64,000 nt of DNA from the NCBI RefSeq assembly GCF_006345805.1, contig NC_042998.1, forward strand, positions 172,360,001 to 172,424,000, read 5' to 3'. The notes below the pieces were generated by a model that searched no databases, was not told the DNA's origin, and saw nothing but the letters and a program-made list of their open reading frames with translations. Origin of the DNA: Octopus sinensis (Eukaryota). A program made the translations under genes and the position numbers. Below, in pieces: positions 8,972 through 61,299 of this stretch (position 1 is its first letter; each line of letters starts with the position of its first letter).

Positions 8972-9118
8972 CTTTATGAAAATGAAAAAGACGACACAAA
9001 TAGGTTAAAGAAAGAGCTTGATACGAGCAAACGGGAACTTTCGGCGATGAAATTAGAACTGGAAAGGTTTCGAAGATTACATGAAGGTAGTTCAATTGAG
9101 TCAAACCAACAGAAAAGG
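8972..9118 (+). CDS. PPP1R12A: MYPT-like coiled-coil exon (LYENEKDDTNRLKKELDTSKRELSAMKLELERFRRLHEGSSIESNQQKR)
   Basis: tag acceptor ending 8971, gtaagt donor at 9119, 147 nt, phase 0-0, heptad-rich. Confidence 0.9.
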
Positions 9119-10075: not shown

Positions 10076-11727
10076 TGTTAGTTAGTTAGTTAGTTAATTT
10101 GGCTCAAAAGCAAATAGCAAGGCCATGTAGGGGGACATGGAGTTAAGTACAGGGTGGTGTTCATGTAAAGAGTTCAGGCCACTTGAGGTCCAGGGAGGCT
10201 TTGAACAAAGCGGTCGTCGGCATCTTCACCATCTCGTCTGGCAGCTTGTTCCACGGATCCGCAACCCGGACGGAGAAAGCTCCTCTCCTTCGATTGAGAT
10301 GAAATCGTCGCAGGTAGAGCTTTTCGGAATGACCCCGCAGCCGACGCTCCGGAGCAGGAGTGAAGAACAGCTCTTTCGAGAGGTTACACTTCCCGCTTAT
10401 GATGTTGTGGGCGAGAATGAGGTCACCACGGCGGCGGCGTTTTTCAAGAGAATAAAGGTTGAGCGTCTTCAGCCTTTCTTCGTAGGGCAAATTTTTGAGA
10501 CCATGAACCATGCGGGTAGCCAGCCTCTGGACTCTTTCGAGGTGCTGTATGTCTTTGAGGAGATAAGGAGAAGAGGCTTGAATCCCATACTCCAATATGG
10601 GTCTCACCAGCGTGACATAGAGTGGCAGGAATATGGCTGCTGTGAGCATTCCGAATGACCGTCGAATCAAAATCAGAATTCCACGCGCTTTGTTGGCAGC
10701 ATGGACGCACTGGGCCGAAGGCGAAAAGGAGTAATCCACCAAGATACCCAGGTCCTTTACCTGATCGGTCCTCTCCAGCAGCAGACGACCCGGCTCGAAA
10801 TCAAGTTGAGTTGCAGGAGTAGAGCCGACAGGCAGATGACAGCACTTTGACACGTTCAGACACAGGTCCCAATCGTTAGACCACTTCCAAATTTGGTGGA
10901 GGCACCGACGAAGATCCTCTATACTACCGCGAGGAGCGACCAGTTTGATATCGTCGGCAAATAGAAGGGTGTGTTGCGTGAGGTCGTCGGGCAAGTCATT
11001 TATGAAGACTAAGAACAACAAGGGCCCAAGCACTGAACCTTGAGGCACGCCACTGCTCGCACTGGAGACGTCGGACCGCGAACCATTTACTTGAACTTGG
11101 AAGGAGCGATCTGAGAGGAAGGCACCAACCCATCGTACAATATCCGGATGGAAACTATATGCTTGAAGCTTGACAAGTAGTAGACGGTGGTTTACCGAGT
11201 CAAAAGCTTTGGCAAAGTCCAATAAAACGATGTCAACAGCATCACTATCATCGAGGATGCGCATCACCAATTCTTCCATTACTAGTAAGTTGGTCAAGCA
11301 TGATCTCTTCGGCACGAAGCCGTGTTGGGAATCAGTGATCGAGGCTGTGTTTAGGAGGTGGAGCATCATACTTTTCTTAAGGATGGTTTCGAACATCTTG
11401 CTGATTATTGATGTAAGGGAAACCGGTCGGTAGTTAAGCGGGTCTTTGCGGCTCCCTTTCTTGAAAATTGGGCAGATTATCGCTGTTCTCCAGTCTGCAG
11501 GTATAACACCCGTCGCCAATGACATATTGAATAGTCGTGTTAAGGGCTCGCAGATGACCGGAGCCAACGCTTTGATAACCCGTTGGTGTATGCCGTCAGG
11601 GCCGTGACCCTTGTTGACATCGAGGCCTTGAATAACACGTTTGACTTGGTCCTGCGTGATGATTAATCGAAGCATTGGAGGTACCGATCTATCAAATGGA
11701 GGGGGTTCACGACCATCATCTTGTTTG
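10076..11727 (-). mobile_element. Young 5'-truncated CR1/Jockey-group LINE with an uninterrupted RT ORF (10161-11727)
   Basis: About 520 open codons with NYRPVSLTS, LDFAKAFDSV, GVPQGSVLGPLLF and FADD motifs. Short 3' UTR, (TAAC)n tail at 10077-10096, flanking direct repeat GCTGCCA at 10069-10075 and 11728-11734. Confidence 0.95.
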
Positions 11728-11964
11728 GCTGCCAATAAGTAACACTAAATATAATACCGATGACTCATCTCTTCAAAATTTTACGTTGATCCTTATCAAA
11801 AAGGCTTCTGTATTTTAACATTGATTTTCTAGATTATCTCAAATTTTCAATAGAAAAGTATTTCAGTATGAACTCAAAATTTCAGAATAAAAATCTTCTG
11901 TTCCTCTCCTTTCTTTCTGTCTGTCTGTCAGTCATTTTCAGTATTTACATTATTTTATTGACAG

Positions 11965-23134: not shown

Positions 23135-23221
23135 CAACATGAAAAGTTAAAAGCGGAGAACGCAAAAGTTAAGGAAGAAAATCGAGCTCTGGCTCGGGTC
23201 ATCTCCAAACTCTCCAGATAG
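23135..23221 (+). CDS. PPP1R12A: MYPT leucine-zipper exon A, proximal and divergent (QHEKLKAENAKVKEENRALARVISKLSR*)
   Basis: Long pyrimidine tract + ccag acceptor, phase 0, 28 codons + TAG, RVISKLS terminal motif. The donor-like gtaaat directly follows the stop. Confidence 0.85.
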   Translation, partial: QHEKLKAENAKVKEENRALARVISKLSR

Positions 23222-33618: not shown

Positions 33619-36525
33619 GCCACTTAAGAGTGTATTTGGTGCATTTTATTGTGGTACCAGCACCTGTGTAGTTTACTTTAGCCCCAATGAAACAAAAGGG
33701 TCATCACTGCTGAAAGTTATCACTATCAGCATAGAAGTAAATGAGTATTTGAAATTAATCTATGGATTAGAAAATGTACAAGAAGATTTTATTGAAAAAT
33801 GCTTCAAACTGTGGAGCATTAAGACATTAATTAATGACCAATGCTATTACATACCTTTATGAACCATGTTAAGATGTTTTGTTACTGTAAGTAATTCTCT
33901 GTAGCTTACTTTGTTTAACAAGTTATATAATTGAATCATTCTTGTTGCCTCCCGTCACAGTTTAAGTTCAAATCCCACCCTAGTTGAATATGTTTTCATA
34001 TTCCTGAAGTCAATGATATAAGTAAAGTGGCAAGCTGGCATAATTGCTTGCATGCTGAGCCATATGCTTAGTGGCATTTCATCCTTCTTCACATTCTGAG
34101 TTAAAATTCTGCTGAGGTTGGCTTTACCTCTCATCCTTTTGTACCAGTTAAGCACTGCACTCATTGTAATCGATTTACCCGCTCCCTCGAACTTATTGGT
34201 CTTGTCCCAAAATATTGAAACCAATAATATAATTATTTATCATGAGCTGGGGTAAATACAATTAACTATCTCTTGAATGCAGTTGTTCTAGGATGGTCCA
34301 CAATGCAATTGCTGAAAACCATGAAGGAGTGGAAGAAAAGATTCTTCACTTAAAGTAAAAGAATAACTAATTTTATTAACAATTTTGCTGGCAAACAATA
34401 ATTATCATTATTTCTATTTTGTTTCTCCTTTTGTTGAATAAATTATTACGGCTTTATTTTTTGTTTTTATATCCTTCATTTCTATTCTTAGCTTCTCTCT
34501 CATTTTTGTTAATTAATAATAGCGAACAACAACACTTGAAGCCATTTATTAGTAATTTTATATCATACAGTCTGTTTCAACAATAACCTATTCTTATTCT
34601 CTTCACTTAACTCTATCATTAATATGAAATATATTCAACACGGTTACAGTTTATTTAAACTGGGTCATATGTAAGCACCATATTTTCTTTTTCTATTTTT
34701 GATTTTAATTACTATACCCTTGCATTCTTTATCTCAGCTACCACTCTCTCTTCTGTCTATATCTTATCCCCCCCCCCCCCCATCAATATTCTCTCTTTCT
34801 CTTTCATGAATGTTTTGTTCTTACTTGAACTCTTTATGTTCTCATAGCTGAAACAGAAATTCATCTTGACTAACTAACTAACTAACTAGATGTTGTTTCT
34901 GTCGCTATTTTCTTCAGTCTGTAACAATCAGAATGTTTCCCATTAGTTGTGATATTAGCTTTTAACTCCTAACAATACATCTCTTTCATCCAGTGTCATC
35001 TGTAGTGGGGTTCAGTCACCAAAGCAACAACATACTATCTAATGCTAGTATTTCTATTATTCTATTAGCCTAACAAACTTCTCAACTTCACTATAACCTA
35101 ATGACAGTATCTCTTCAACCTATCATCCACATCAGAAACTTGTAGACATTCCTTAATACAACTGCCGAACCCATCATTAAATGCCATTTATTGTTGATTA
35201 AAAAGAAAAACAAAAGAAAAAATATAAAATGAAATTTTAGAACACTTCCATTTAAATTTTTTAATTATTTCTACAATATTATTTTTAGTCTCTTAATTAA
35301 ATCCTCAAGCATATGTTATTTTCCCTAAAACTGTATATCTTTAATGCACTTTCAGAGCATGGTTCACTAATTTCATAGCCAGTCAATTAGGTGATTCCTG
35401 TCTTAACAGTAGTACTGCATTGTGTCCTTAGCTATGGTTAGTAATTCTCAAATGGATCAGTCTACCTAACAAACAAACAGGCACTACATTTTTGAATGTT
35501 TTGTTAGTTTTCAGTACTGAGTTCAACTTCTCATGTGGACATTATTTAGAGAAGAATGGATTCTGCCCAGCCAACTTGTGCTATATATTCTTTATGAAGC
35601 TGGACTTCAGCGCTACCCTTTTCACATGGGGACTAATGTTACAAACTTATGTTGTACTTTGCTACTTACTATTGTTGGTTGACTTTAAGCAGTGCAGTTA
35701 CGCATAGCTGGAGTACATGCTTTACGGCATTTAGTATGGTAAAGCAAAGCATCGTTAGATCCTGCCTAGCATTTCTTCCTTCTGAAGTGAATTACATAAC
35801 AGTAAAGTTAGTCCTTAATTAAAGTTACCTTGTGTCACTAAGTATGAATGAACTGACTTCTGTTTTTGACTTAACCCATTTATTAGTTGTATAATCTATA
35901 ACAACGTAACATAACATTACAATGGCCCTTAGTATTTCCAGAAACTTTGGTAGTTTTCATAATGCTATTAAATTTAATGGAAATTTATCATGTAGAATTC
36001 TCCGAAGCATTTCAAGAAATCAAGTTAGGCTTAGTGAGAAATGTACAACCCTCAGTTTCATTTAGTGTTGGCATTGTTTTATAGTTTAAGAGGTTTAACA
36101 TGTAGTTATATGCTGTTAGATGTTATGTTGTTATCACTGGTTCTCCCTTCTGAACTTCTAGCTTTTTGTGGCTAATGTAAATTAAAAAAAAAAAAAAAAC
36201 TACTGAGGATGTGTATTATACAATGTGTCTTCATGCATTAATCCTTGTTGTAATAATTTCTGGCTGTTAAGATTGAATATATTTGAAGCATCTTCTGCTT
36301 TGTATTCAGAAACAACGTATTCCAACATTTATTGAATTTTTCCAGTTGTTCATCACCCGAAATTTTTGTTGCTTACTTTTTATTATTATTTATTTATGCT
36401 TTCATATATTTTGTACCATAGGAAGATTTCAAAATTGAGGACAATTTAAATTGTTGGGTTTTATCATTCTTACTTTTAATCATGGAGTTTTGCTTTACTT
36501 ATTGTATGTATTTTCATTTTTGCAG

Positions 36526-36612
36526 GAAATGGACAACTTGCGATCTATAAATGCACGACTGAAAGAAGAGAATGGAGCTTTAATAAGAGTGGTCAGCAAA
36601 CTCTCCAAGTAG
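36526..36612 (+). CDS. PPP1R12A: MYPT leucine-zipper exon B, distal and canonical (EMDNLRSINARLKEENGALIRVVSKLSK*)
   Basis: ttttcatttttgcag acceptor, phase 0, 28 codons + TAG. Matches the conserved MYPT C-terminus RLKDENGALIRVISKLSK. Confidence 0.92.
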   Translation, partial: EMDNLRSINARLKEENGALIRVVSKLSK

Positions 36613-38716
36613 TCAGAACTGCTTTATTATTACATTTTATACACATACACACACATATTACTTATGCCTCTTCTCGTTCTTGTTCTCCTCCCACTTCTCT
36701 GTTTACTTACTACAATTTCTCCCATTACTTTAATTCATCTTTTTTTCCTTTTCATTACTCCATCATCATCATCTTCATCATCATCATGCTCATTATCATC
36801 ACCATGTACATCATAGCCAGGTTCCCCCAACTCCACACAGTTACGTCAAAATTTAAACTTTCTGCTTACACTGGAAGTTCAGTTGAAATCTGATTCTGTT
36901 CTTGTCTTCCAAACTACAGTTCTTGCATATAACCGCCATGCCAACCTTGTTGCAGCTGCTTGGCTCTTGTTGAGTACCTATTTGCATGCCAGCATACACA
37001 ACTATGTAGATATAAGTAATGGTTAAAGATCAACTTAAACTATAGTTTTGAAGGTGATGTTTGTCTAGCTTATATTGAGGAATGAGTTCTTTTCATATCT
37101 CCTGAAAGCTGCCTCCAAAATTGTAAACCATTTTATATAACCTTTTACTGTTTCTTTAAGTATTATTGCACATTTGACACCTGTTTTTTTTTTTTTTTTT
37201 GCTTCAATATACCTTTCTCTCTCTGTCCCTCTCCTCTATCCTTTTTCTCTTTTATTCTTTCGTTTTCCTCATATTCTGCGAATTTTAGTGTCGAGTAAAT
37301 GTGGTGTGTTGTTTCACACAGGCAGAAATAATAATTGATGAAGGAGCTATGAACTGTCCATTTACTCTATTCCACTCTATATTCTTTCTGCTGTCCATTT
37401 GTTTTTTCCTATTAATAACTGTCTTATTTTTGATTTTTTAAAATTTGTTTTAATACTTTTATCATCTTCTCTATTTTATTCATCACTATAACACTTGTTG
37501 GTTATTATTACTGTTATTATTCCACTCCATTCCTCATATTGATTCTTCTGTTGTGAAAGGTGGGACCTACTACCTATGCAATATGAAGAGTTAGAAGTAT
37601 AAAGTCTTAGGCCATCTTCTATAATGTCCATTGTGATGTAAATAGAGCTTGCTATCATTCTTGGACATGCTATCAATTTTTGTTTCTGAAACCTCTTCAT
37701 TTGATTCTTAATTATGTTCATATAATTGTAAACTACCTGCAGTGAATTATTTTATCAAACCCAACATCCCAAAATAAAAGGCATAGATTTTCATGTCTGA
37801 TCCTTTTATTGTTGTTAATTTTTCTTCTTAGATATTGAGTGAAAATGATGGAAAGCATGTAGCTTGCCAACTTTTTGGAACTAATACAGGGAAAACTTTT
37901 TTTTCGTTTTCTTTTTTAAATTTCTTATCAGCTAGAATGTTTTATTTTGAAATAATTTGAAGGAAAGGCAATTCCAACTTTTTAAAGATCAATTTGATAC
38001 GATGTGAAATAATAAGAGAAAAAATTTATATTTGTCTTTTAGTTCAAGCCTACTTTTTTCATTTCAGAATGTACTTCACTTCTGTCTGTATTTATGTGTG
38101 TGTAAAATGTATATAATCTGCACATACACATATACAGCTTGGTATTAGGCTTAAATTTACTCCTAGAATATTTAGATGGTAGAGGGGAAAAATCTATATT
38201 AATTCTTTATATAGTTTTTGACTAATTTTAGACTTTTAATCTTGTTTAAAGAATACCAAATGTTTTTCTTTTATGACCTCACATTTTAATTTTCTGTAAA
38301 TTCATTTTCTTTGTATTTAGTAGGAATCATTGTGTGAATGTTACTGAAGCAAAAGAAAGACGTTTGTACATTACTGCATATACTCTGACAAGTTGTGGTG
38401 CACCTGAGCACTGTATACAATAATTTCATTATTATAAGGAAGTAGTTGACAATCATATTTCATGACCAGGTTTAGAATATACTGAATTTCTCTCTTAAAT
38501 TGTGGTACTTATAGGTTGTGTTTTTATAATAAGAAATTAAGGCTATTTCTTTCTTTTTTTTTTTTTTTTGTTATCTTTCTCCTACTCAGCAATATTTTTT
38601 CCTGTTTTAAAAAAATCATTTTAGTATTTTTAATACACACACACACAGCAAGTATGTATTCTTTATACAAATATTTAAAAAATGCTTAATTCACACTTGT
38701 GCAGATGAGCAGTCAG

Positions 38717-38766
<50 letters not shown>

Positions 38767-39289
38767 TTAGTGTGTGTAGGGAACCAGAAAACCAACACAG
38801 TACTCTACATTCTGGTGTTGTGGCCTTATTCCTCACCTCTTCATTAATCTACTGAAGAATGTAGACATTATGCCAAAAAGTTTAGACAGTATGGAAACTT
38901 AGCAGAATTGATATCTTCCTTTGGCTTCATGCACTTGCAGGAACAAGCATGTCTCTCATGCATATATATATATATATATACATCAAATTTTCTTTCATTT
39001 TCTCAAAAGAAAATTTGTTTAGAATTTCTGTTTTCTATTTAGTACTTATTTTATTTGATGCTGGTGAGATATCAAATGCCTACCAAACGACAGCCAATCT
39101 CCTAGAGTACGCATTGTAGAGTAATGTAATTGTTCAAGTAGCTCCAGTCTTGTTGGTTTTCATTCTTGGTTTTAATAAGAAAAAAAAAAGTTTTGAGAAT
39201 ATAGATTACAAAGACAAGAACTTATGTTGAGTGTGACCTGTATTATTTAGTACTATTTTCTGGATATCATATATGCTAGGTTTTTCTGG

Positions 39290-40620
39290 TATTTTTACAA
39301 GGATATCATTGGAGCACTAAGGGTCATAAAGAAACTAGTCAGTCACAACTGGTATTGTTTCTGTCTTCAGCTATTACATCCTGCTTGTTTCAATTTCAAG
39401 GTCTTTATACCAGGCAAGTTTATCATATTCCTTGGTAAGTACATTTTTTAACAAATGGTATTGTCATATATATATATAGTAGGCAGGTCTTGCTCCGGAC
39501 GTCTTTAACAATAATGTCTGGGTGGTTGGCATTAATTTTGCAATCACTATATACTGCTAAGTCCCTAGCGATGGTAATATCATTACTTTCTACTACTGGT
39601 TTAGTGTTCAGACCAGCTTTACGCATATTCAGTTCCAGTGAATGTATTGGGCCATCTGTGTCATGTCTGGTTTTATATTTGATTGGAGCCAGCATTAGGC
39701 ATCCAGCTACACTATAGTCAATTGTTTTGTCATGGGCATTACTGACTCTGCACATGAGGGTCTGCTCCATTTTTGATGTTGGTTTGATAATTCATAGTTT
39801 ATAGGGAGAAAGAATGAATCCCTCTGGCTTCAACCCTGAACTCTGCAGCCACTGATAGGTTTTTGATTGGTTTACATTAGCTTCCTAGGTATGGAGTGGG
39901 TATAAGCCATAGAGAGGCTTCAGCTGCCATCTATTTTCAAAATTTTAAGTCTTTCTGTTTTTGCTTTCATCCTATGCATTTTGACTATCTTTTTTGGCAT
40001 TTGGTCAGCTTCGTTAGCCATTTCTATTTTTGCAGTGTGTATCTCTACTCTATTTCTGAGCTTCTTTGTTCACTGAATGAAGCATCTTCTGGGTTTCATG
40101 TACTCTCACTCATATCATCATCCAGTCATTGGTCTTGCTTAAGTACTTCTGCAGCCCAGCCTTAGCTCTCTTCTACCTTCTTTCCTTGACAGGTAGAGGC
40201 GGTCTATATCTATCTTTGGATGGTACATTTTATTGGTAGTTATATGTTTTTTGGTTTTTGTCTTCATTCTTAGGTTTCAGTTGATGACATTGAAACCATA
40301 TTATACAAAAGGTACTGCTAAACTTTTAATACCTTCTATGCAATTCTTGGAGCTCACTTTCCAGGACCTACCTTACTCTTCTGTAGCACTCCTTTTAACA
40401 TTGGCAGTTTCGGCTGGGAAAGTTCTTCAAATTCCTTTCAAGGTAACACTGGATGATTTTGTTTCTTTGATTGTGCAAAGAGTTGTCATTCCTGTACTCT
40501 CTATTCTATGGATGGTGAATTGCAGCTCTAACACCAGAGCACCTCCTGACAGTTCTGCCATTTTCAGCCAATAAATTGTGGGTAATATGTCTCAAGCATC
40601 TCCCATGTTTTAATGAGTGA
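39290..40620 (-). mobile_element. Degraded REL-endonuclease (R4/NeSL-like) LINE 3' fragment
   Basis: CR..TID...GC..LAP..Y..RHD and PDIIVKD...CLL...TIP motifs. Boundaries are approximate. Confidence 0.7.
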
Positions 40621-43600
40621 AAATGAATGAGATTGCCAGATTCATCATTCTTATACAAGTTCTTTTGTTTTTAAAAGAAAACCATCTGATACCATACAAT
40701 GTTTTTGAATGGAGATAGTTGGAAGACATGTTGTATCGATGCCATGTGGTGGATTAATATCAGGTTATTGGTGTAGGTATGATCTTACCAGATGAATCCA
40801 AATTTTGCAGCACTGCTACAGATAGTTGGTTTTCTTTCACTTCTTCAGTAGTACTCCTTTATCCTTGGAAACTGGTCAAGGCCTTCACAGTCATTCCATA
40901 ACACAAGGACATTCTTTAGATTGGTATCTGTTTTGAGTTCTAACAACCACTCACTGATAATTAAATTGACAGGCTGAGTCCTGAGTGAAAGAAGCAATAT
41001 TATTATTATTATGATACTTTGGGTCAAAATATTAGTGTCGCACAAAGTCTTAAGGTATTTAGTTTTGATCTTCATATTCTCAGTTCCAAACCTATCAAGG
41101 TTAACTTTGCTTTTCATTCTTCTAGGGGTTTGATTAAATGATTACCAGTAATATCTCAATCAACTTATATATTACGTAATCAATATAACTATTTTTTTTT
41201 TATTGTAGGATGCTCTTACACTTTTTGTTTTCCTTTTCTATCTCTTTCTCCCTCCCTTCCTTTACCTCTCTCTTTCCGTTTCTTATTGTGTATGTATAGC
41301 TGCAGTCCAAGTTAGCAGGTTGGCTAAAGGTTAAACCGCAGTGTGTGCATGCAAATGTGTAAAAAAATTGCATCTTAAATTTTGTTAAAAGTATCCTTCT
41401 CTCAGGTTACTCAATTCTCGATTGTCACATCTAGATTGTATCATCTCGCATGTTGGTTCTTTTTTTTTTTTTTTTAAATTCTTTTGCCATTTTTTAAAGT
41501 CTCTTATTTTTTTTGTTTTGTTTTTCAAACTCTGACACCTAGTGTACATAATGAAACTTCGAGGTGGGCCAATCACAATGGTGCTATCCTGACTTACCAG
41601 TTTTTCCATAATCTTCCGGTTGTTGTTGCTTAGACAATTCTTATATATGAAAGAGTATATGGGCCTCTGTTGATTTTGACGAAAGTATTGTGGGTGTTTG
41701 ATTAACTGAGCCACCTCCTCATTGAATTAGGGTGTGAATGCTTGGGTTTGCCACAGACGCACCTTTTGAGGTAATGATCCTCAGGCAGAATCAGTGTGAG
41801 ACAAGGCTGGCCTTTTTTTTTGATTATAAGTACAGTCCATACAACAAGCTTCCACACTTTCCAACTCAATTCCACTTAGTTTGAGTCAACTTGAATCAAG
41901 TAAACGACTCTTGCCCAAAATGCCACAAAATGGGATTGAGACACATATTGTATACATTGTGTGTATGAATATGAATTGGTGTGTAAGTAGATTCTAAAGC
42001 TTGTTTGGTTTCTGTATGTGTGTGTGAGAGAAAGATTAATCCATACAAAATCGAAATGTATGTGCATAGTAACTTGAATATATAAAAAATAAGCAAAATA
42101 AAGTAATCTTTATGCTGTAATATTTTTTACTGTTAAACTGTTTGCTGCACAGATCAAAGTGTAAATAACCAAAATTGGAATAGATTCTATTTTTGTAGAT
42201 AGTATGAAAATGACTGGCAATCCCTGGTCTGTCACCTGCAAAATAGGGAAATTAACAAACCTTATTTTTGCCACATACTCCACACACATGCATACACACA
42301 CACTTTGGTACACAGTTATTCAGAGTAATTGACAGTGTATATATACATTCGTGTGTGTTTATGTGTGCATATGTCCATGCACACACACACACACATTTAT
42401 TTTAATCTCATTTGGAGACTTGCCTTGTTAATTATGTTTCTCATCATTGAGCTTCAAATCTTTTTGACTTGCCTTAAATTTAAAATAGATTCACGTGTTT
42501 ACAAAATAATATGCCACAAACAACCCTGTGTTGAATTATACTATAAACAAAGTACTAGTTGTATTAGTTTGTGGTTATTCTACAAAGGAACGATGTGGTT
42601 GAATGTGTGTGTTTGTGTGTGTGTGAGCCTGTAAGTAGTAGTCTCTCATTTGAGTATTTTTGCTTATAATTTGAAATTTGATTGATTTTAAAAAGCAATG
42701 TTTTTCTTGTGGGATTCTCCTCCTCCTTCAAAGTGCAACTTCAAATTAATTATAGCAAAAAAATTTTATGTATTAACGATTGTCTCTTCTACAAAATCTT
42801 TCAGCTAGAATACTTTGTTCAATATAGCTGGAAAAGTACAGGAACTTCATTGAAGTTGTGTTGTTTTCTAAAGAATTATTATTCTTACTATAGAATATGC
42901 AATAAATTGTATTTATACTAAATATATATATAATATGTTTGTGTGTGCGTGTGTGAGATTAAGCACATGGTTGTTATATTCTTGCTGGCCATTCCGTGAT
43001 ATTCTATGTAGGGAACTCAAGTAATGTAGTAATTCTTGGGAATATTTAGATGTTTAGATGTGTGATGACTTCGTTCTGCAAGATAACTGAGCAGTAATGT
43101 TAATTTTTCAACATTGCTGAAACACCTATTTAAATTATATATATATATATGTATATATATGTATATATATATATAGGCACCTCTGTAAATATTGGATTGC
43201 TGTGTAAATATTGTACATTTTTCTATGGGGTCTAATTTATTATGTTGCTGTGTTCCTCACCCCTTATGCTTATCAAATGTGTTTGTCTACTCATCAACTT
43301 CTTGATCTCATTTGTTTGTTTTCCTTTTCAATTGAAAAAAAGAAAAAAAATCAGTTATATTCAAATGGTTTCTGATTGTTTCTCGTAATACATCTGAATT
43401 AAAATGCATTTTCTGACGACAATATGTAGCTGTAATAATTACCATCAACAGAATACTCAGAACTTTAAAAACCAAATAAAAAAGTAATTTAAAGTTGTCA
43501 TGTTTTTCTGTTTTTGATAATCGGTATCTTTCAGGAAACCTGCTGATGTACTATTGTAGTTGAGAGATCGTTAGTACCAAGGCATATTGCATTCATCATG

Positions 43601-43690
43601 GTTAGATCATAATTTGTCCAACATAAACTTTGGCAACTTGTCTAAGGTTGTTCAAGGCTTTATTTTTGACATTTTACTGGTCACCTGTTT

Positions 43691-43723
43691 CTCTGGTGAC
43701 ATGTTGGATCAGAGGTTTGCATA
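43691..43723 (+). promoter_or_regulatory. Repeated RNA hairpin element, copy 1 (CUCUGGU-GACAUGUUGG-AUCAGAG + GUU UGCAUA)
   Basis: 7-bp stem with one G-U pair and a 10-nt loop identical to copies 2 and 3. Confidence 0.6.
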
Positions 43724-43866
43724 ATGCTCTTCATATTAGTGACCTCCCCTATGATGGTCATTTGCAGGAGTTCTGTTTGTCCTCACAAGGTGTAAATGGC
43801 TAATTTACACACAGTATTCTCTCTTACTGCTGGAAACATTTTAAAAAAAATTCTTTTATTTTGTCT

Positions 43867-43928
<62 letters not shown>

Positions 43929-44118
43929 AGAGAGAGAGAAAGAGTTGTAATTTTTCTGCAGTAAGATTTTGTGTCAATCAGCCATTTTCACTTTAGTGAA
44001 TACCATTTCTTGTTAGTATACATTCTCTGTACATTCACATGATATTTTGAGTCATGGCTCCTTACTGTAATCAGTCACAATAAGGAACTCTGCCTCACCT
44101 GTCTTGTGTGTTGACAAT

Positions 44119-44151
44119 CTAAGGTGACATGTTGGACCTTAGGGCTGTATA
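44119..44151 (+). promoter_or_regulatory. Repeated RNA hairpin element, copy 2 (CUAAGGU-GACAUGUUGG-ACCUUAG + GGC UGUAUA)
   Basis: Perfect 7-bp stem with compensatory changes relative to copies 1 and 3. Confidence 0.6.
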
Positions 44152-44997
44152 CTAATGACAAAGCGTCTTGCTCGCAGCCAAGCAAGAAATCCAACATCTC
44201 GAGTGATGTGCCTGAACAAAACTATTGAGGTTATTTTTTTAATATTTTCAATCATGTACAAATAGATGGTCTCTTAATTTATGCCTATATATTTCAATAT
44301 GTTTTCTTCAATAACACAAGTGTTGCTTGATTTCTTGCTTCTGTTTGCAAAAAAGACAGAAGTTGTGCCTTATTGTGGAAAGTATTTTGCAGTTTGTTCA
44401 TTATCTTCCTGTAAAGTTTCAGGGAGACAGTATTAGAGTTAAACATTCAGAAACCTTACGAACACTATGAGGGTTGTTGTATTTGTGCACATATTTGTAT
44501 AATGGGTCAGCATGTGTGTAGACCCTGTATATAAAAATGTACACATATCCAACACTCTTTCTCACAGAACCAAGTTTGATAAAGTCACACATCTTCACTT
44601 CAAATATTTGTCCACAGTTTGCTTCATTACTCCCCTCAAAACAGAGCTCTAAACTAGCAACTCATGTCTGATTTTAACATTAAGGTAAGATAACTCAAGT
44701 AAGGTATTTACCTATATATCTAATCATTGGGTGTTGTAGCAGTTGTATGAAAAATATGATAAAGTAAGATATTTAGTTATATTTCATTATAGGGAAATTT
44801 GTCTTGTGATATGGATATGTTAATGTCAAGTTTCTGTGCACAAAAGGCTTATTCTGCGCTGAACTGTTGCTAAAAGCTTTAGATAAGTGAAATAACTTAT
44901 TGACTTTGTCCATGATTTCTTTTTTAGATATGTAGAAACCAAAACACCTGGTATCTACTGCTTTTAGCTATTAACACTGCAGCTCAGGTAATGCTTT

Positions 44998-45030
44998 CTT
45001 AGGTGACATGTTGGATCTAAGTTTTGCACA
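44998..45030 (+). promoter_or_regulatory. Repeated RNA hairpin element, copy 3 (CUUAGGU-GACAUGUUGG-AUCUAAG + UUU UGCACA)
   Basis: 7-bp stem with one G-U pair and the same loop. Confidence 0.6.
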
Positions 45031-46490
45031 GTTTTGCTTCTCTTTAACATCTTCATTTATTTTGTTTAGCTTTTGCTTTAAATCATCACGATAACCTCGT
45101 TAAAAATCTACATTGAAGCTAACATTTTCAGATTTATTTAAAACGAAAAGTATAGGTATTTTTGAAAATATTGTGTGTGTGTGTGTACCTACCTCAATGT
45201 CAGTTTTGCTGTAAAGGGACCAACCTGGAATTGTTGTGAAACTCAATTGAAGAAAAGCTCTTTTCAAATGATTAGAAGATATGCTTGAGTTTTTTTAACA
45301 AACAGCTTTACCACAATCACATCAGCTGATTTTTCTTAAATTTATTATTCCAGTCAGTCTTAACATGTAAACTCTCCCACTACTAAAATGATAAATAATA
45401 ATAATATAAGCTATTTTATATGTCTCCAGGCTGTACTCTATATTACTTATTTATCCTCTCAATAAGTACATTGCCATCAGATATTGACAACTTTGAATTT
45501 ACTTTCAATCCAGTGCTGAACTAAAATTTAAAACCAGCGAAAACATTCCCAAATTGTTTACTTCAGTCTCGCTGCTGTTGACTTCAACCTGCTTGAACTA
45601 GTTGAATCTGCTTTCGATATGAAACCAAAAGGAATATTCTATTCTCGAATGAAGTTTTTGAATTTTCAATAATTTCAGTTTTATAGTATTTGAACATGAA
45701 AACTTGAAGACTAACTATTAAGTAAATTATTGTCACTAAAAGAATTCTCAATTGATAGGAGCTCTGTATACATTTTGTACACACACACACACACACCTCT
45801 ATACTTAATTTATTAATAGATATTGAGGCTAAGCTACTGGACTACAGTTTAAACTAATATCTAATTTCCAGAAGAAACAAACTCATCAGAAATTATATAA
45901 AATAAAGGAAACTTAATAAAAAGAAAGTGTATGATAGGTAAAGGCATATTTTTTTAAATCTTAATTTCATATTTCTATTTGTAAATTAGATGAGCAATGA
46001 GTAAATAAAAAAAAAATCAAAATCATTAGTATATTGGGTATAGTTCAGTTGTAGGGCTCTGTTTGAAGTAATATCACTTCAGTGGCCACATAGAATTATT
46101 CTCTCATTTTCTGTACAGTATATTTTTTATTCTTGCCTTTGACAACAATACAAATTATGGAAAAACTGGTACTTTATTATTAGTTTTTGAAAGTTTTTCT
46201 TTTTTTTTTTTAATACCCCATGTAAATCATTTTCACTATTGCTAAATCAATTTTGTTGATGTCTTTGCATAATTTCTTCTACATTTAGTTATCTTTTGTC
46301 AGCTGATTAGTTGGCAATGGCAGGAAGAGCACCAGTGCTATGACTACTCTGTAACTATGACATTCTACACCCATATGAAAAAAAAAAAAAGTGCACGCAT
46401 GTTACTTGAGGCATTGTTTTCTGAAGCCAATGTCAATCTCCTTATACTGTAAAACTGTAGAATATTAGTAGAAATATAATTTTAGTGATG

Positions 46491-46535
46491 AATAAATTGT
46501 TTTGTTCACATACACTTGTTTTTGTTTTCTTTATT
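46491..46535 (+). terminator. Candidate distal polyadenylation signal of the MYPT-like gene
   Basis: AATAAA at 46491, CA dinucleotides at about 46507-46515, then a U/GU-rich tract. It lies at the end of a repeat-poor stretch. Confidence 0.4.
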
Positions 46536-49500
46536 GTATTTTATATGTTGGGATTCATGTGTTAAGTCATTTAATTTTTTGACCCCCAAGGAATGTGAAG
46601 CATGTATTGTGATTGAAAGGGATCCTCTCAACTAGAAAGGTACAAGGAATTGGGTGAAATGGCTCAGCCGGAAATTGAAACTTCATTGCAAACACAGCTA
46701 AGAGTTTATCATCACCCTACAATGAAGGTGCCCCTAGCCAGTCTCTTACCTATTATTTCAACATAAAACAAAATCCTGTGGGGTTTACCAATCTGGCTTG
46801 TGATTTTTTTTCCTTTTAAATTGTATGTTCTTATATCAAAAGGGCATATGGACGAGTGGTTAGGGTGTTGTAATGCAGACAATCACCATACTATCATTAA
46901 TACAAAGAGTTTGTATAGGTTATGATGAAACACTGTGTATTTTGAGTTGACTAAACCACAATAGTTGAAATGTGTAGTTTGTAGTATTGAATGGTTGTAA
47001 AGAAGACGCAGATATTTCCAAATATTACAAAACAAAAATATAAATTTTGGTAAAAGAAATTAAGACTTACGTGTTAAGTTGAATAACTTAACCCTGGTAA
47101 GCAAATTGAAAATCAAGTGTTCTTTTTTTTTTAAGAGTGTGTTATGTGGGAGATTTCATCTGCTACTTTTACTTGGTCAAGTGTCTGTAGAAGCTATTTT
47201 GGTGGCACATGAATAGTTAAGAGAGTGCTGTTCATTTAAAATAGGGAGCTTAAGTTATATTATCACCAGTTTTAAGCCTATTTCAACATAATTTGGGTGT
47301 TAACTAGACATCCAAACTAGATTCAGTAGATTCTTTGACTTTGTGAGGCCTTAGTAATGCTCTGGAAGTTGGACTTAATGGAATGAAAAACATGGGTGGT
47401 AGTTATTGAATTCATGATGTTAACTGATTTATTTCATCATCGTCATTGTTTAATGTCTGTTTTCCATGCTAGCATGGGTTGGACGATTCAACCGGGGTAT
47501 GGGAAGCTAGGCGGCTGCACCAGGCTCCAGTCTGATCTGGCTGTGTTTCTACAGCTGGATGCCCTTCCTAACGCCAACCACTCCGTGAGTGTAGTGGGTG
47601 CTTTTTACATGCCACAGGTGCCAGGGGAGGCTGAAAACCGATCGGTTGGTGCTTTTTATGTGCCACCGGCACAAGTGCCAGTAAGGCTGCACTGACATCA
47701 GCCACGTTCGGATGGTGCTTTTTACGTGCCACTGGCACAGGTATCACTACTACAATTTCCATTTGATTTTTTATTTTGATGTTGATGTGCTTGACTCTAT
47801 AGGTCCCCTCAAGCACACAGCATAAATCAGATGAAGGGCAACTTCATGACTTCCTGCCTATGAAACTGGTGGAGGAAAAAGAGAATGAAACAATAGCTCA
47901 TGGCAGACATATTCCAAATGCTATAACAAAGAACCGAGACTGCCCTGGTTCTAAGATACAAACTTCCTTTTGTTAAATTCTGTTCCAAATATCAGCCTGA
48001 TTACAACAGTTATTTTACTCGATTCTTCATTTTCAAAATTAACTGAAACAAAGACAGTGTCTTCCAACAGAAATATGGTAACAAAGGAGCTAAAAGCACT
48101 GAAAAGTATACAATGGTATTAACCTTTTTATTAACCACATTTCTGTTGAAATACACTACCTTCGTTTCATTTATGTTTAAATAAATGAAAAGCTTAACAA
48201 AATAATTCATTAGGCTTATCTCTGGAACATAACCTGAAATATTACTGGAAGATTTTGATTTAGATCTCATTAAAACAAGTTTATACCATGGAACCAGTCC
48301 AATCTCAGGGAGATTGGTATCAGAAAAGTTAATGTAGATAATTAATCTGATGATTCAACTGACTGGAACAGACCTGTTAACTGTTACAAGTACTAAATGG
48401 AATTTACTGACTTAAAAGGCTTGTGTACTAGCAAGTAAACTTGCTATCTTTTACCTTTTTTTTTTTTTAGAAATATTCTGTTCAAAGAAGTGTTTCATTT
48501 CCTTCTTTCTAAACATCAAAATACAGGATTTGGTGAATGCTGATCTTCGAAATATCTGTGAAAGTTTTGACAATGACTTTTGGTGACTACCTTAATTGCT
48601 TCTGAAGTGCTTGGTATAAAGGGGTCTCTTAAATTTAACTTGGTCTACAACAGGTTATTTCCACATGCATTTCAAGTCAGCATCATTTTCCATGACTGAC
48701 TCATTAATTTGTTCCATATCAAAGCTGTTGATGCTTTTTATTATTTTTCAACTATTTGATCTAATGAAAAATATTGTATGAAATCTAGTAGAGTAGGGGA
48801 GAATTTAGGACATGGTATTATGTTTTAGTTTTCAGTTTGTCCTCTTAGTGGAACAAAAGCTTGATAGTAAGGTGTGTTTCCAATATTTACGAACAGGATT
48901 TTCTTGAGTATTTTTGACTTCATATCCGCTGTCCGATCCACCTCAACTGATTTAAGGTGTTTTGAATCACACGTTCTCAGCTACAAGGATGATGTTCCTA
49001 AACTTCGCTCACAGTAAAAGGCTACAAATGGTGTATTAGCAAAGCGTATGGAAGTATAAAATTAGCAAAGTGAAACTTAAAGGAACAATTCGAAAAGTTG
49101 CAGCTTCTAATCAAATATGTAAACCATGTATCAAAGACTTGTTTGTTTTTAAATACAACTGTTCCCAATCCATATATGATTATTAATCCTGATTTTCAGA
49201 AGACCATTCAAACAAAAAGGACAATGTATTAGATATTATATGCCAACTTGTGCTAACTTTTCAAATAAACAGTCTATTAGTTTTGGTAACTGTATCGTAC
49301 CGAGTTTGACTTCATGACAGATGACTGTGGTAACATCAATTTGATCAGTGTTTTGTGGAGTAAACTGCAGAAGTCCACACACATGAACATGTATGCACAC
49401 GTAAGTATATATTAATGTTCAGGGATGTCTACTTTATCATCATTTAACATCTGTCTTCCATGCTGGCTTGAGTAGGACAGCCTGACAGGATCTGACAAGT

Positions 49501-50959
49501 CCAAGGATTACACGAAATTCCTGTGTTTTGGCATGGTTTCTAGAGCTGTATGCCTTTTCTAATGTATGTGTGTGTACTGTCAAGGCTACATTTTTGTCCT
49601 ACCTGCTAGCCTCTCATCCATGTAGCTCCTCTCACCCACCTCTTATAAGTTACCTATCTATCACCCGTGCCTTTATCATTCATATCTTTGTTGTCTATCT
49701 CTCAATTACTTCCTCCTCTTCTCACCTTCATTGTACTCTGCTGCTGATACAATTAAAATAGCAGTGGATTTCTTCAGCTAATTGTAATACATTACCTTCA
49801 GTGCAACCGGGGATGTTACATAAACTATCTGACCCTCCCTCCAACATTTTACCTCTTCTTTGCTCATCTTTTATCTTCTTAGCTCTCACACTATTAGAGA
49901 CTGCATTATACTCGGATGTACCTCAAAATTTACCTAAATTCTTAACTGGCCCTTTTGCACTGAAACCCATAGTTCATGGTTGCCATTTATCTACACCTTT
50001 CTTTCCATCATTCTTTTACTACTATTTCATGCAACCAGTACTTTGCTCCAACAAGATCAAATGATCCTCACAATGTAGAGTTGTTTGGTCTTGTTGAAGT
50101 CAGAACAACCTCTCAAGTGTTGGTGCCAGGAAAAATGTACCCAATGCACTCTAAGTTGGTTGGTATTTGGAAGAGGATCCAATTGAAGAAACTAAATAGA
50201 AAATGTTTGGCTGTGTGGCAAGTAGCTTGCTTACCAACCACATGGTTCCAGGTTCATTCCTACTGCATAGCACCTTGGGTCTTCTATAGCCACGGGTCGA
50301 CCAAAGTCTTGTGAGTGGATTTGGTAGACGGAAAATGAAAGAAGCCCGTTATATATATATATATATATATATATAGATGTGTTTGTACCCCCAACATCAC
50401 TTGACAACCAATGGTGGTGTGTCTACGTCCCCCTAACTTAGCGGTTCGGCAAAAGAAACCAACAGAATAAGTACTAGGCTTACAAAGAATAAGTCCTGGG
50501 GTCGATTTGCTGAACCAAGTAAAAGAGTAAAAAAAAAAAAAATAAAAGTTAGGATCTTCCAAACCATCTAGAAGAGCAGAAATGACCAGTCCAACCAACG
50601 CCAGTGGGAAGTGGAAGTGAATTGAGTTTTTGGTGATGATGATGACATACAATATATTTTTTTTCTGTGTTTATTAGTGTCAAGTTGCACCATTTTGTCA
50701 AAAACAGTAACTTAGGCTTTTGATAAATAGATATTGATGAAAATAACAAACTGAACAAAAACTGGGATCAATATAACTGATTAAAAAGCATTGAAGTGGT
50801 GTTTCTGCTTGGACACAGCATAACTAAAGTCAAGAAGAAGGATACTCGGTATTGTGTATATAACCTTGCCTCACAGGTAGTCCTTGGGTTATGAATGAGT
50901 CCTATTAAGTCTCTATAGATTGAAATAATGTACACTTTGCGTTTAGTGTGAGTCAAATG

Positions 50960-58907: not shown

Positions 58908-60935
58908 TTAATTCTCTTCAGCTGACTCCCATGTCACCTCTTAATCTGTAGCTGAAAGGAGAAGCACCTATAAAGCTGCTAAGAAATTAGCAAGTATCAA
59001 AACTGTAGCATTACAAGACAAACTAACAAAACTTTTATGTCCTGTGCAATCAATATCACCACACTAGCTAGTTGTGCCAAGGGAGATGCTTTCATTTCCT
59101 ATTAAATATGTAATATCAGTTTCTAGTGATACTGCCTTGTTCAATGAACATGATTTAGTCTCAAAGACAGTCCCATAGGGCTACTATAGTTGAACTAACA
59201 TATTCAAGATTCTGTGATAGTCAGATCTAAGTTGCAAGTTCATGTTAAACTAAGCAGGCATCTTTTCATCAATGCATCAAACAACAGAACAAGGAATATG
59301 TACTCCTGAATTCTTGCTAAATAAACGTATTTCTATTAGAATTGCTTCTGTTTTATGTGTTGCATATCAATTTAGAGATACAAGGCAATATATAAAATAA
59401 AACATAAAAATTATAGATAAACAGTCACAAAAGCTTCCATACATCATAGAAACCTGAAAAAATTCAACTTTTGATAAGTATAAGCATTACAATAAAAAGT
59501 ATGCAAATATAATTCTACGCAAAAGGTACAAACAAAAAAATGGTACTTCTGCTGGCAAATGGTATATGTGCATACATTCATGCATGGGTGCAGGGCAAGT
59601 GTTTATGTCAGATGTGTTCAATTAATTAACTGTAATATCACACAGTTTCTCCCTATCTGCATGTGCATATTTCAGTGTGCAGATGCATATTCTGTGTGTG
59701 TTTGTTTCCAGCACCAAAAAAAATACTGTCACCAACACAGGCTGAATGTCCAAGTTAACCATGCAAAATTGCCAGTGTCCAAATACCAGCACCCAATTTT
59801 TTCCTTCCATCATTTAGAAACATCATCCTACATTCCTTGGATGATTATGGCAATAACTACCATGTGTGCTCATCCCAAAGATATATTCAATATCTCAGCA
59901 TCTATTCCTTATGGCTACCCTACTTTACCTTCAAATCGTTATTGTTTCTTCAATCTCAATAATTGGCCTCTCTCTTTTGGAATCATCATCATCATCGTTT
60001 AATGTCTGCTTTCCATGCTAGCATGGGCTGGACGATTTGACTGAGTACTGGCGAACCAGATGGCTGCACCAGGCTCCAATCTTGATCTGGCAGAGTTTCT
60101 ATAGCTGGATGCCCTTCCTAACGCCAACCACTCCAAGAGTGTAGTGGGTGCTTTTACGTACCACCGGCACGGGGGCCAGTCAGGAGGTACTGGCAACGAC
60201 CTTGCTCGAATGTTTTATCACATGCCACCGGCACAAGTGCCAGTAAGGCAACGCTCGAATGGTGCCTTTTACGTGTCACTGGCACGGAAGCCAATGAGCC
60301 GCTCTGGCAACAATCACACTCGGATGGTACTGTTAGTGCCCTACTAGCATGGGGCACAAGTGCCATATTTTTATTTTCTCTGATCAGCAATTGCCTCTTT
60401 TAAGATGTTTGCTTGACAATTGTTTTGTAATATGAAATGCAAAATATGAGGATCAAGCAAAATTACTTTATGGTTTTCAGTTCTGCCTCTAGAGTTATGT
60501 TTCTTTATACCAAGGCCAGCTGTTTTTTTTGTCCATTTGTTAATCTGCTTGTTTTTTGTCTGTTCGTTAATCTGCTGTTATTTATGAAATTGATAAGTAC
60601 CCGAGAAAGTATGAGAGTTGATATAGTCAATTAAAATCCTTGAAGGTGGTCTGATCATAATGCTTTTTGATTTAGACACAAGGCTAACAACTTTTGGGAG
60701 AGGGTTAATTGATTACCTCATTACTTTATTTTAATAACCCTCAGTGGAATGAAAGCTGAACTCGACCCTACTGGATTTGAAATCTATAAATAAAAACCCA
60801 CAATAAAGTTATTAAGTACCCCAATGATTCTGCCAGCCTGCAACCATCTTATAATGGCATTTTTCTGATGCTCTAATGATTCTATTAGCTCACCACTCTA
60901 GATAGTTCCACCATAATGAAAGAAGAAAAGAATAC

Positions 60936-61107
60936 CTTGAAAGAAGAAACCAGCTTCAGCCAAATTCTTTTTATCAGGTTTGCCAGTTTGGGGCCAAGTA
61001 AGAAATGATTTTAGACGCTCTTCATATTTTGCATACTTGATATGTAAAGGAGGTGGTTTTGAAATACAAGATGAAAGGATTCCATCCATGTTGTCAGTAG
61101 ATTCCAT
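60936..61107 (-). CDS. IAP/BIR-domain protein, first visible coding exon (MESTDNMDGILSSCISKPPPLHIKYAKYEERLKSFLTWPQTGKPDKKNLAEAGFFFQ)
   Basis: BIR N-half motifs RLKSFxxWP and LAEAGFF. The acceptor puts the exon edge at 61167, and the G|GTATT donor is phase 1. The 60 nt upstream of the ATG are also open, so the start is uncertain. Confidence 0.88.
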
Positions 61108-61299
61108 GTTTGTCAATGCTTGCAACCAACGGCGACACACTTGGATATTATTATTATATATATGTAGCTAAAAAGAATAAAAGGAAAAATGTACAAATAG
61201 CTTTTTCATTCGTATATTTCATATAAAATACAGCACTTGAAATTCTGTAGCAATAATTTCAAAATGTCTCTTTATGAAATTAGATGTTTATATATATAC

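Follow-up and report, generated by a model that had tools for sequence, protein, structure and literature searches.

Three copies of a hairpin lie downstream of the coding exons of the PPP1R12A/MYPT1 gene of Octopus sinensis, and the pattern of substitutions in their wider family makes it close to certain that this hairpin is a functional RNA structure. The reading that we favor is that the conserved stem-loops, within a 9.9-kb MYPT1 3' UTR, would act as repeated sites for one sequence- and structure-specific protein; to this whole chain of argument we give about even odds (a probability of roughly 0.5). The sequence, covariation, strand, and clustering of the copies are direct observations, and the link to the transcript and to a protein builds on them. 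The window, i.e., the whole stretch of DNA that was analyzed, comprises 64,000 nucleotides of contig NC_042998.1, and all positions refer to it. The copies are placed as follows.

43690..43715, + strand: hairpin copy 1, with a predicted 8-bp stem (core 43691-43714; 46.8 bits, as a training sequence of the model)
43698-43707, + strand: loop of copy 1, GACAUGUUGG, with the conserved flank YYUG on its 3' side at 43716-43719
44118..44143, + strand: hairpin copy 2 (core 44119-44142; 42.5 bits)
44126-44135, + strand: loop of copy 2, with the 3' flank GCUG at 44144-44147
44997..45022, + strand: hairpin copy 3 (core 44998-45021; 50.8 bits)
45005-45014, + strand: loop of copy 3, with the 3' flank UUUG at 45023-45026

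A first-pass annotation had placed the copies at 43691, 44119, and 44998, and all three positions are exact and on the + strand. Its description of them also holds: the stems change in a compensatory way (CU/AG, AA/UU, UA/UA), a third pair alternates between G-U, G-C, and G-U in copies 1 to 3, the 10-nt loops are identical, and the flanking sequences do not align. The outermost position of copy 3 is a U-U, leaving it seven pairs. A further element of that description, UGYAYA 3 nt after the stem, is present in the octopus copies but does not extend to the family, where YYUG alone is conserved and AYA is not. Allowing up to three mismatches, the hairpin pattern has three matches in the window, a number reached by none of 100 shuffles (mean 0.01). 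A degenerate fourth copy near 44505 was absent with two models, the next-best match in the window scoring 10.9 bits. The octopus hairpins in isolation are modest in folding energy (z of -1.3 to -2.5), and their predicted probability in context varies with the size of the folding window, several sizes giving copies 1 and 3 no more than 0-0.05. The complement of the 3' half of the loop, TCCAACA, occurs three times in the putative UTR, at 43617, 44190, and 44548 (+), all among the hairpins (1/3000 shuffles). As an anti-loop partner common to the family it was rejected, since the other sources have one occurrence where 1.09 are expected.

The family extends beyond octopus. Scanning 25 of 64 parts of a collection of metagenome contigs with a 16-mer gave at least 128 matches in at least 122 loci. 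The pattern says nothing about the four outer stem positions, and all four are Watson-Crick pairs in 8 of the 128 matches listed (7 distinct), against none of 85 matches in a viral control. The viruses have no match to the full hairpin pattern, and in the 51 of 64 viral parts scanned, none of the 33 distinct contexts has five or more pairs. Among the metagenome matches listed, same-strand clusters are found in nine loci from seven contigs; these represent six sources, because L108 and L112 are 98.6% identical and were counted as one. Each cluster has two to five copies, all on one strand: four in L106, two each in L108 and L112, five in L128/L129, five in L144, four in L195/L196, and two in L207. 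Composition and repeats suggest that these sources are animal sequences. No MYPT match was found among the 122 metagenome loci listed. A seventh source, L226, is an 11-kb contig with 37% GC and transposon fragments, in a record titled Candidatus Thiodiazotropha. As Candidatus Thiodiazotropha are symbionts of lucinid clams, this contig is likely bivalve host DNA that contaminates a symbiont record, and the family would then be common to octopus, a bivalve (likely), and six other sources. The remaining 113 metagenome loci were taken as chance matches: the best of them scores 28.9 bits, versus 32.7-50.3 bits for the members, which are the training set of the model or duplicates thereof. A possible further member, L156, has a perfect stem and no 3' UG. 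In prokaryote genome records, six of the seven matches are bacterial and lack the full stem. Three contigs in records titled Bifidobacterium breve (L227, L228, and L230) have a matched stretch that is nearly letter-identical to those of the actinobacterial L225 and L231, possibly a case of binning contamination.

An alignment of 26 copies over 46 positions (alignment A3; 3 from octopus, 22 from metagenomes, and 1 from L226) gives the anatomy of the family. A copy was admitted if it had five or six of six pairs and differed from the 12-nt core at no more than one position; L112, the L129 copies that recur in L128, and the inverted L226 copy with its mutated loop were omitted. The stem is not a product of this filter, since 22 of the 23 distinct matches found in the positive metagenome loci without it, at up to two mismatches, carry the stem, all on one strand. 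There are eight pairs, including an eighth outer one, and two-sided changes at seven of them; the count of two-sided changes alone is not significant, given that 51 of 500 shuffles reach seven, nor are related copies independent of one another. For covariation the score is 0.82, versus 0.28 for shuffles (0/500 reach it) and 0.03-0.23 for slid registers. Similarly, 94.7% of the 208 stem cells are paired, versus 16-53% in slid registers. G-U cells number 27 and A-C cells 3 across these stems, which indicates an RNA transcribed in the + direction, and the 26 copies have no indels. The selected + strand RNA stem-loop proposed from the three octopus copies is thus sustained in 26 copies by the two-sided changes and the excess of G-U. 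Beyond the eighth pair, a lower stem shows no covariation above shuffles, save for 2 of 99 column pairs at P < 0.02.

The loop, UGACAUGU(U/C/A)GGA, varies at a single position in the 26 copies. In the form UGACAUGUNGGA, the loop region is invariant save for N, which is U in 22 copies, C in 3, and A in 1. The near-invariant family loop is UGACAUGUYGGA, in which U, GG, and A, outside the ACAUGU palindrome, are no more variable than the palindrome itself; part of this invariance is built in, because an exact-match seed was used. The flanks were unselected: UG at the third and fourth base 3' of the stem is found in 19 of 22 metagenome copies versus 9 of 103 chance matches, and U immediately 5' of the stem in 17 of 22 versus 25 of 103. 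A two-pair fold within the loop would cost +1.4 to +4.2 kcal/mol.

Could the hairpin be a piece of a mobile repeat? The 16-mer GGTGACATGTTGGAYC has three matches in the 2.72-Gb octopus genome, all at this locus, and its reversed control has one. The 14-mer core has 14 matches versus 15 in the control, and the other 11 lack the full set of seven pairs. Looser patterns revealed no second cluster in this genome: GTGACATGTYGGAY has 47 matches versus 40 in the control, with stems checked for a minority, and CTGACATGTYGGAG has 20 versus 7, none with six of six pairs. A run of matches on C15 is a 20-nt minisatellite that has the loop letters and no stem (G000:C15:21914450-21915150, L259). The first-pass annotation had named a dispersed transposon fragment as what would overturn its reading; what we find is one same-strand cluster in 2.72 Gb, the remaining loop matches being minisatellite or lacking the full stem. 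A DNA-level element or a piece of a MITE, Helitron, or SINE, with its symmetry kept by template switching, could account for L226, where two copies lie on opposite strands of an 87%-identical, 157-nt inverted local duplicate and one loop is mutated. It could also account for the enrichment of the words GTGACC and AGGTC upstream of copies (for GTGACC, 6/25 versus 2/201, borderline after testing many words). Such an origin is nevertheless very improbable, given the single cluster in the whole octopus genome, the unrelated flanks around a fixed loop, the excess of G-U over A-C, and the single strand within each cluster.

The features that are fixed and those that are free suggest how the hairpin might be recognized. 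The stem sequence is free, whereas its length, the loop, and the distance to the 3' UG are fixed, and we therefore favor a protein that spans the loop and the base of the stem. The hairpin copies would be part of the mature MYPT1 mRNA, and a candidate protein would read the loop together with the stem base, so that stem length and pairing would matter and stem sequence would not. MAT2A hairpins, iron-responsive elements (IREs), and the histone stem-loop offer analogues of such a reading mode. That one RNA has several copies points to avidity or a graded response, through which the two to five copies might set mRNA stability, translation, or transport. The long hairpins often found just upstream could add partners of the Staufen type, which bind double-stranded RNA, and the loop palindrome may also let bound copies pair with one another.

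Known systems resemble this arrangement in part. IREs are present in five copies in the TfR1 3' UTR, and each has a CAGUGN hexaloop and a C bulge. As in the octopus family, a short stem-loop is repeated with its loop and geometry constant and its stem sequence free to vary; one protein reads the IREs, as is proposed here. An identity with IREs was rejected, since the octopus family has a 10-nt loop, an unbroken 8-bp stem, and no Rfam match. The MAT2A hairpins hp1-6 are sites of METTL16, whose nonamer is UACAGARAA. The likeness here lies in several hairpins that share a loop and cluster far into a 3' UTR, a placement that is inferred for octopus. In contrast to MAT2A, the octopus loop is not the METTL16 nonamer, there is no match to Rfam MAT2A, and the upstream gene is MYPT1 and not a SAM synthetase. 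A METTL16 site was rejected on the absence of the nonamer from the loop and of an Rfam match. A study of MAT2A describes hp2-6 as clustered at a long distance from the stop codon and as controlling the stability of the mRNA (PMC10578476).

The palindrome raises a different possibility: the hairpins could be kissing-loop stickers, in which ACAUGU, lengthened to an 8-bp duplex by G-U or G-C pairs, would join copies within or between molecules to give dimers, networks, or granules, much as the single oskar SL2b loop acts. A palindrome is improbable by chance in a 10-nt loop (7.6% for 6 nt, 1.7% for 8 nt), and a pure protein-site model leaves it unexplained. It is intact in 26 of 26 copies, and the sole variable base of the loop, which faces the first G, is U or C in 25 of 26, preserving the 8-bp self-duplex. 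The flanking purines are invariant, as they are in the HIV DIS according to one report (PMC7357161). Since an extended duplex between different octopus copies would gain merely 0 to -2.6 kcal/mol, contact between them would be loop to loop. The oskar SL2b/OES and the HIV-1 DIS share with the octopus family a six-nucleotide palindrome in the apical loop, adjacent invariant purines, and long stems nearby. They differ in being GC-rich and single-copy, while the octopus-family palindrome is AU-rich (2/6 G/C) and present in two to five copies with a conserved 3' flank. The oskar and HIV kissing loops are described as GC-rich in two papers (PMC11567897, PMC7357161), one of which associates lower GC content with less dimer (PMC11567897). 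The AU-rich core is accordingly weaker, at -4.6 (6 nt) or -7.2 (8 nt) kcal/mol, versus -10.7 for oskar CCGCGG and -7.9 for HIV GUGCAC. Furthermore, no double change that preserves the palindrome occurs in the 26 copies, U to C is also the commonest type of mutation, and kissing would need neither a fixed stem length nor the 3' UG. We regard the sticker model as the main rival, at clearly lower odds than the protein-site reading. A more elaborate version is a shade less probable still. It supposes a palindromic kissing-loop array, kept for more than 500 million years across molluscs and probably other marine invertebrates, that would cross-link molecules of one RNA, by RNA-RNA pairing, into multimers or granules, the loops once paired being recognized by a dedicated protein. 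Should this hold, a widespread family of multivalent RNA stickers would be seen in animals for the first time, carried by a transcript that encodes a myosin phosphatase regulator. The protein-site and kissing-loop readings can both hold.

The protein-site reading presupposes a host transcript, which in octopus is probably that of MYPT1. The gene and the features that define its 3' end are these.

23135..23221, + strand: alternative, duplicated proximal terminal coding exon of MYPT1
36526..36612, + strand: distal terminal coding exon, with the leucine-zipper tail of PPP1R12A/MYPT1 and the stop codon (PF15898 at 36526-36609, E of 2.7e-10, above cut-off)
36613..46511, + strand: putative 9.9-kb 3' UTR (terminal exon) with the three copies, based on word cover, unspliced contigs, and a skew of T over A
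46491..46496, + strand: AATAAA followed by a U/GU-rich tract, a likely poly(A) signal with cleavage near 46511

That the upstream gene encodes a MYPT had been proposed from the letters alone, and exon matches to proteins, together with PF15898, identify it as PPP1R12A/MYPT1. Of 23 protein matches to the exon at 8972-9118, 11 are PPP1R12A of Octopus sinensis and O. vulgaris, with 100% identity, and the other 12, from O. bimaculoides where the name is legible, have 94%. The distal terminal exon matches the tail of 18 of the 23 proteins at 100%. The two duplicated leucine-zipper exons are 60% identical to each other, and O. bimaculoides proteins have both. The proximal stop codon is immediately followed by GTAAAT, a possible donor, and both isoforms might therefore share the distal UTR.

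The hairpin copies lie 7.1-8.4 kb beyond the distal stop codon. According to one study, the median octopus 3' UTR is 350-380 nt (PMC9699675), and a MYPT1 UTR of 9.9 kb would therefore be extreme. In 14 small contig sets (46-199 million letters), whose status as RNA is a guess, a fraction of 0.86-0.94 of the words of 36500-46499 is present; the largest set, with 0.93, is on par with them. Contigs of 4 of 20 runs (X1, X5, X11, and X17), none of the 20 being on record as RNA, were aligned over 43942-50330. Those of the RNA-like X1, X5, and X11 extend from 43942 to about 46.5 kb and run through copies 2 and 3 without splicing, joint, or listed variant. Contigs end at 46511 in X5 and at 46490 in X11 (two studies), beside the AATAAA at 46491, while the 2.2-Gb X17 covers all 30 bins. 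The last X1 contig departs from the reference at 46452, and its further 420 letters fit nowhere on the stretch. X1, X5, and X11 have no cover past 46.7 kb, a weak hint at most; the contig ends hint, weakly, at a + strand 3' end near AATAAA 46491. The RNA-like contigs likewise give a weak hint that the three hairpins lie within the 9.9-kb MYPT1 3' UTR, as we infer. In X5 and/or X11, A>G differences from the reference are found at 44432, 45969, and 46053, where an allele and editing are indistinguishable. In one protein (P0007), a donor inside the distal exon is joined to an exon at 48527-48583 (+), giving a tail without the leucine-zipper end and splicing out all three hairpins; the RNA-like X contigs have almost no cover at 48527-48583.

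Alternatively, the hairpins could belong to a separate conserved and structured lncRNA, a scaffold or sponge of the roX or NORAD kind, that would lie just downstream of MYPT1 and end at 46511. Several AATAAA (37773, 40570, 42097, 42901, and 43475) could end MYPT1 sooner. The positive loci from elsewhere abound in long hairpins, and over 0.6-2.7 kb none of them has a protein-like open frame. Some modules, flanks included, are found in more than one source: L196 and L207, for example, share a long hairpin and copy module (76% over 111 nt). The first copy in L129 is preceded by about 400 nt by tandem TTACGTG/CGTCA units and a TATA-like box (L129:2391-2320, -), which represent either a promoter or an assembly break at a minisatellite. 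In the latter case the repeat would mark nothing but that break. RNA-like contig sets have 86-94% of the words of the entire 10 kb that begins at the MYPT exon, so that a gap between two transcripts is hard to fit in, and we consider a separate lncRNA unlikely. roX, Xist repeat A, and NORAD are noncoding RNAs with repeated short structured motifs amid long hairpins. The octopus region is alike in interleaving repeated structured motifs with long hairpins, but unlike them it appears continuous with the last exon of a coding gene and has strong covariation across distant animals. The hairpin shared by L196 and L207 (L196:335-402, L207:217-284) has GACCUUG/CAAGGUC basal arms and lies directly 5' of the copy, and similar GUGACC stems occur in L128/L129.

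Long hairpins also accompany the octopus copies.

43593..43689, + strand: long hairpin with an irregular predicted stem, abutting copy 1 on its 5' side
43783..43999, + strand: (AT)n tract flanked by the arms of a long imperfect inverted repeat, in the interval from copy 1 to copy 2
44469..44559, + strand: predicted 36-bp hairpin between copies 2 and 3 (-34.7 kcal/mol), of pre-miRNA size

The 100-nt stretch upstream of copy 1 has a z of -4.1. The region 43776-44005 folds at -86.7 kcal/mol, partly because of the microsatellite, and the hairpin at 44469-44559 has no Rfam match near the cut-off. The latter and the repeat at 43783-43999 are possible substrates of ADAR or Staufen. Across the family, structure exceeds background in the 100 nt that precede a copy (7/23 versus 5/83 windows at z < -2, P of 8e-5) but not in the 100 nt that follow it (1/26 windows at z < -2). 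Energy models often place copies 1 and 3 in other folds. In particular, GGUCACC, the 3' foot of the hairpin at 43593-43689, can invade copy 1 by pairing with its GGUGAC. These alternative folds may be errors of the model or a real switch.

We take the hairpin to represent a new RNA family, although RNAs of this general kind are known. The first-pass annotation did not recognize it as a described family, and Rfam agrees, with no match on any copy (the octopus copies were tested to E 10). No published description of the hairpin was found in full-text literature, mostly the main text of non-subscription papers, and matches to the loop letters there look like primers in unrelated work. Other classes were considered and rejected. 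H/ACA and scaRNA 3' hairpins have an ACA box after the stem and, in scaRNAs, a UGAG CAB box in the loop. Here, columns 41-43 show no conservation, the loop has UGAC instead, and the copies have no Rfam match. A mimic of the U11 snRNA stem-loop was dismissed, as the best two of five U11 matches in the octopus genome lack such a loop. Mimicry of a tRNA anticodon or TGT substrate, considered because the variable base follows UGU, was set aside, since covariation fixes a loop of 10 nt and not 7. To our knowledge, animals have few short cis-regulatory RNA families that show real covariation: the IRE, SECIS, the histone stem-loop, and the MAT2A hairpins. Each of these led to a dedicated protein and a regulatory circuit. 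The family described here implies an RNA ligand or an RNA-RNA contact conserved in non-model invertebrates, and with its 46-nt model one can directly test which gene hosts it, how far it extends among taxa, and whether its loops kiss.

Two further features of the window lie away from the hairpins. On the - strand of a MYPT1 intron, positions 10161-11744 hold an open frame of 527 amino acids that, from its translation, resembles a LINE reverse transcriptase. Also on the - strand, 60901-61164 is a BIR-domain exon (PF00653) of a convergent IAP-like gene.
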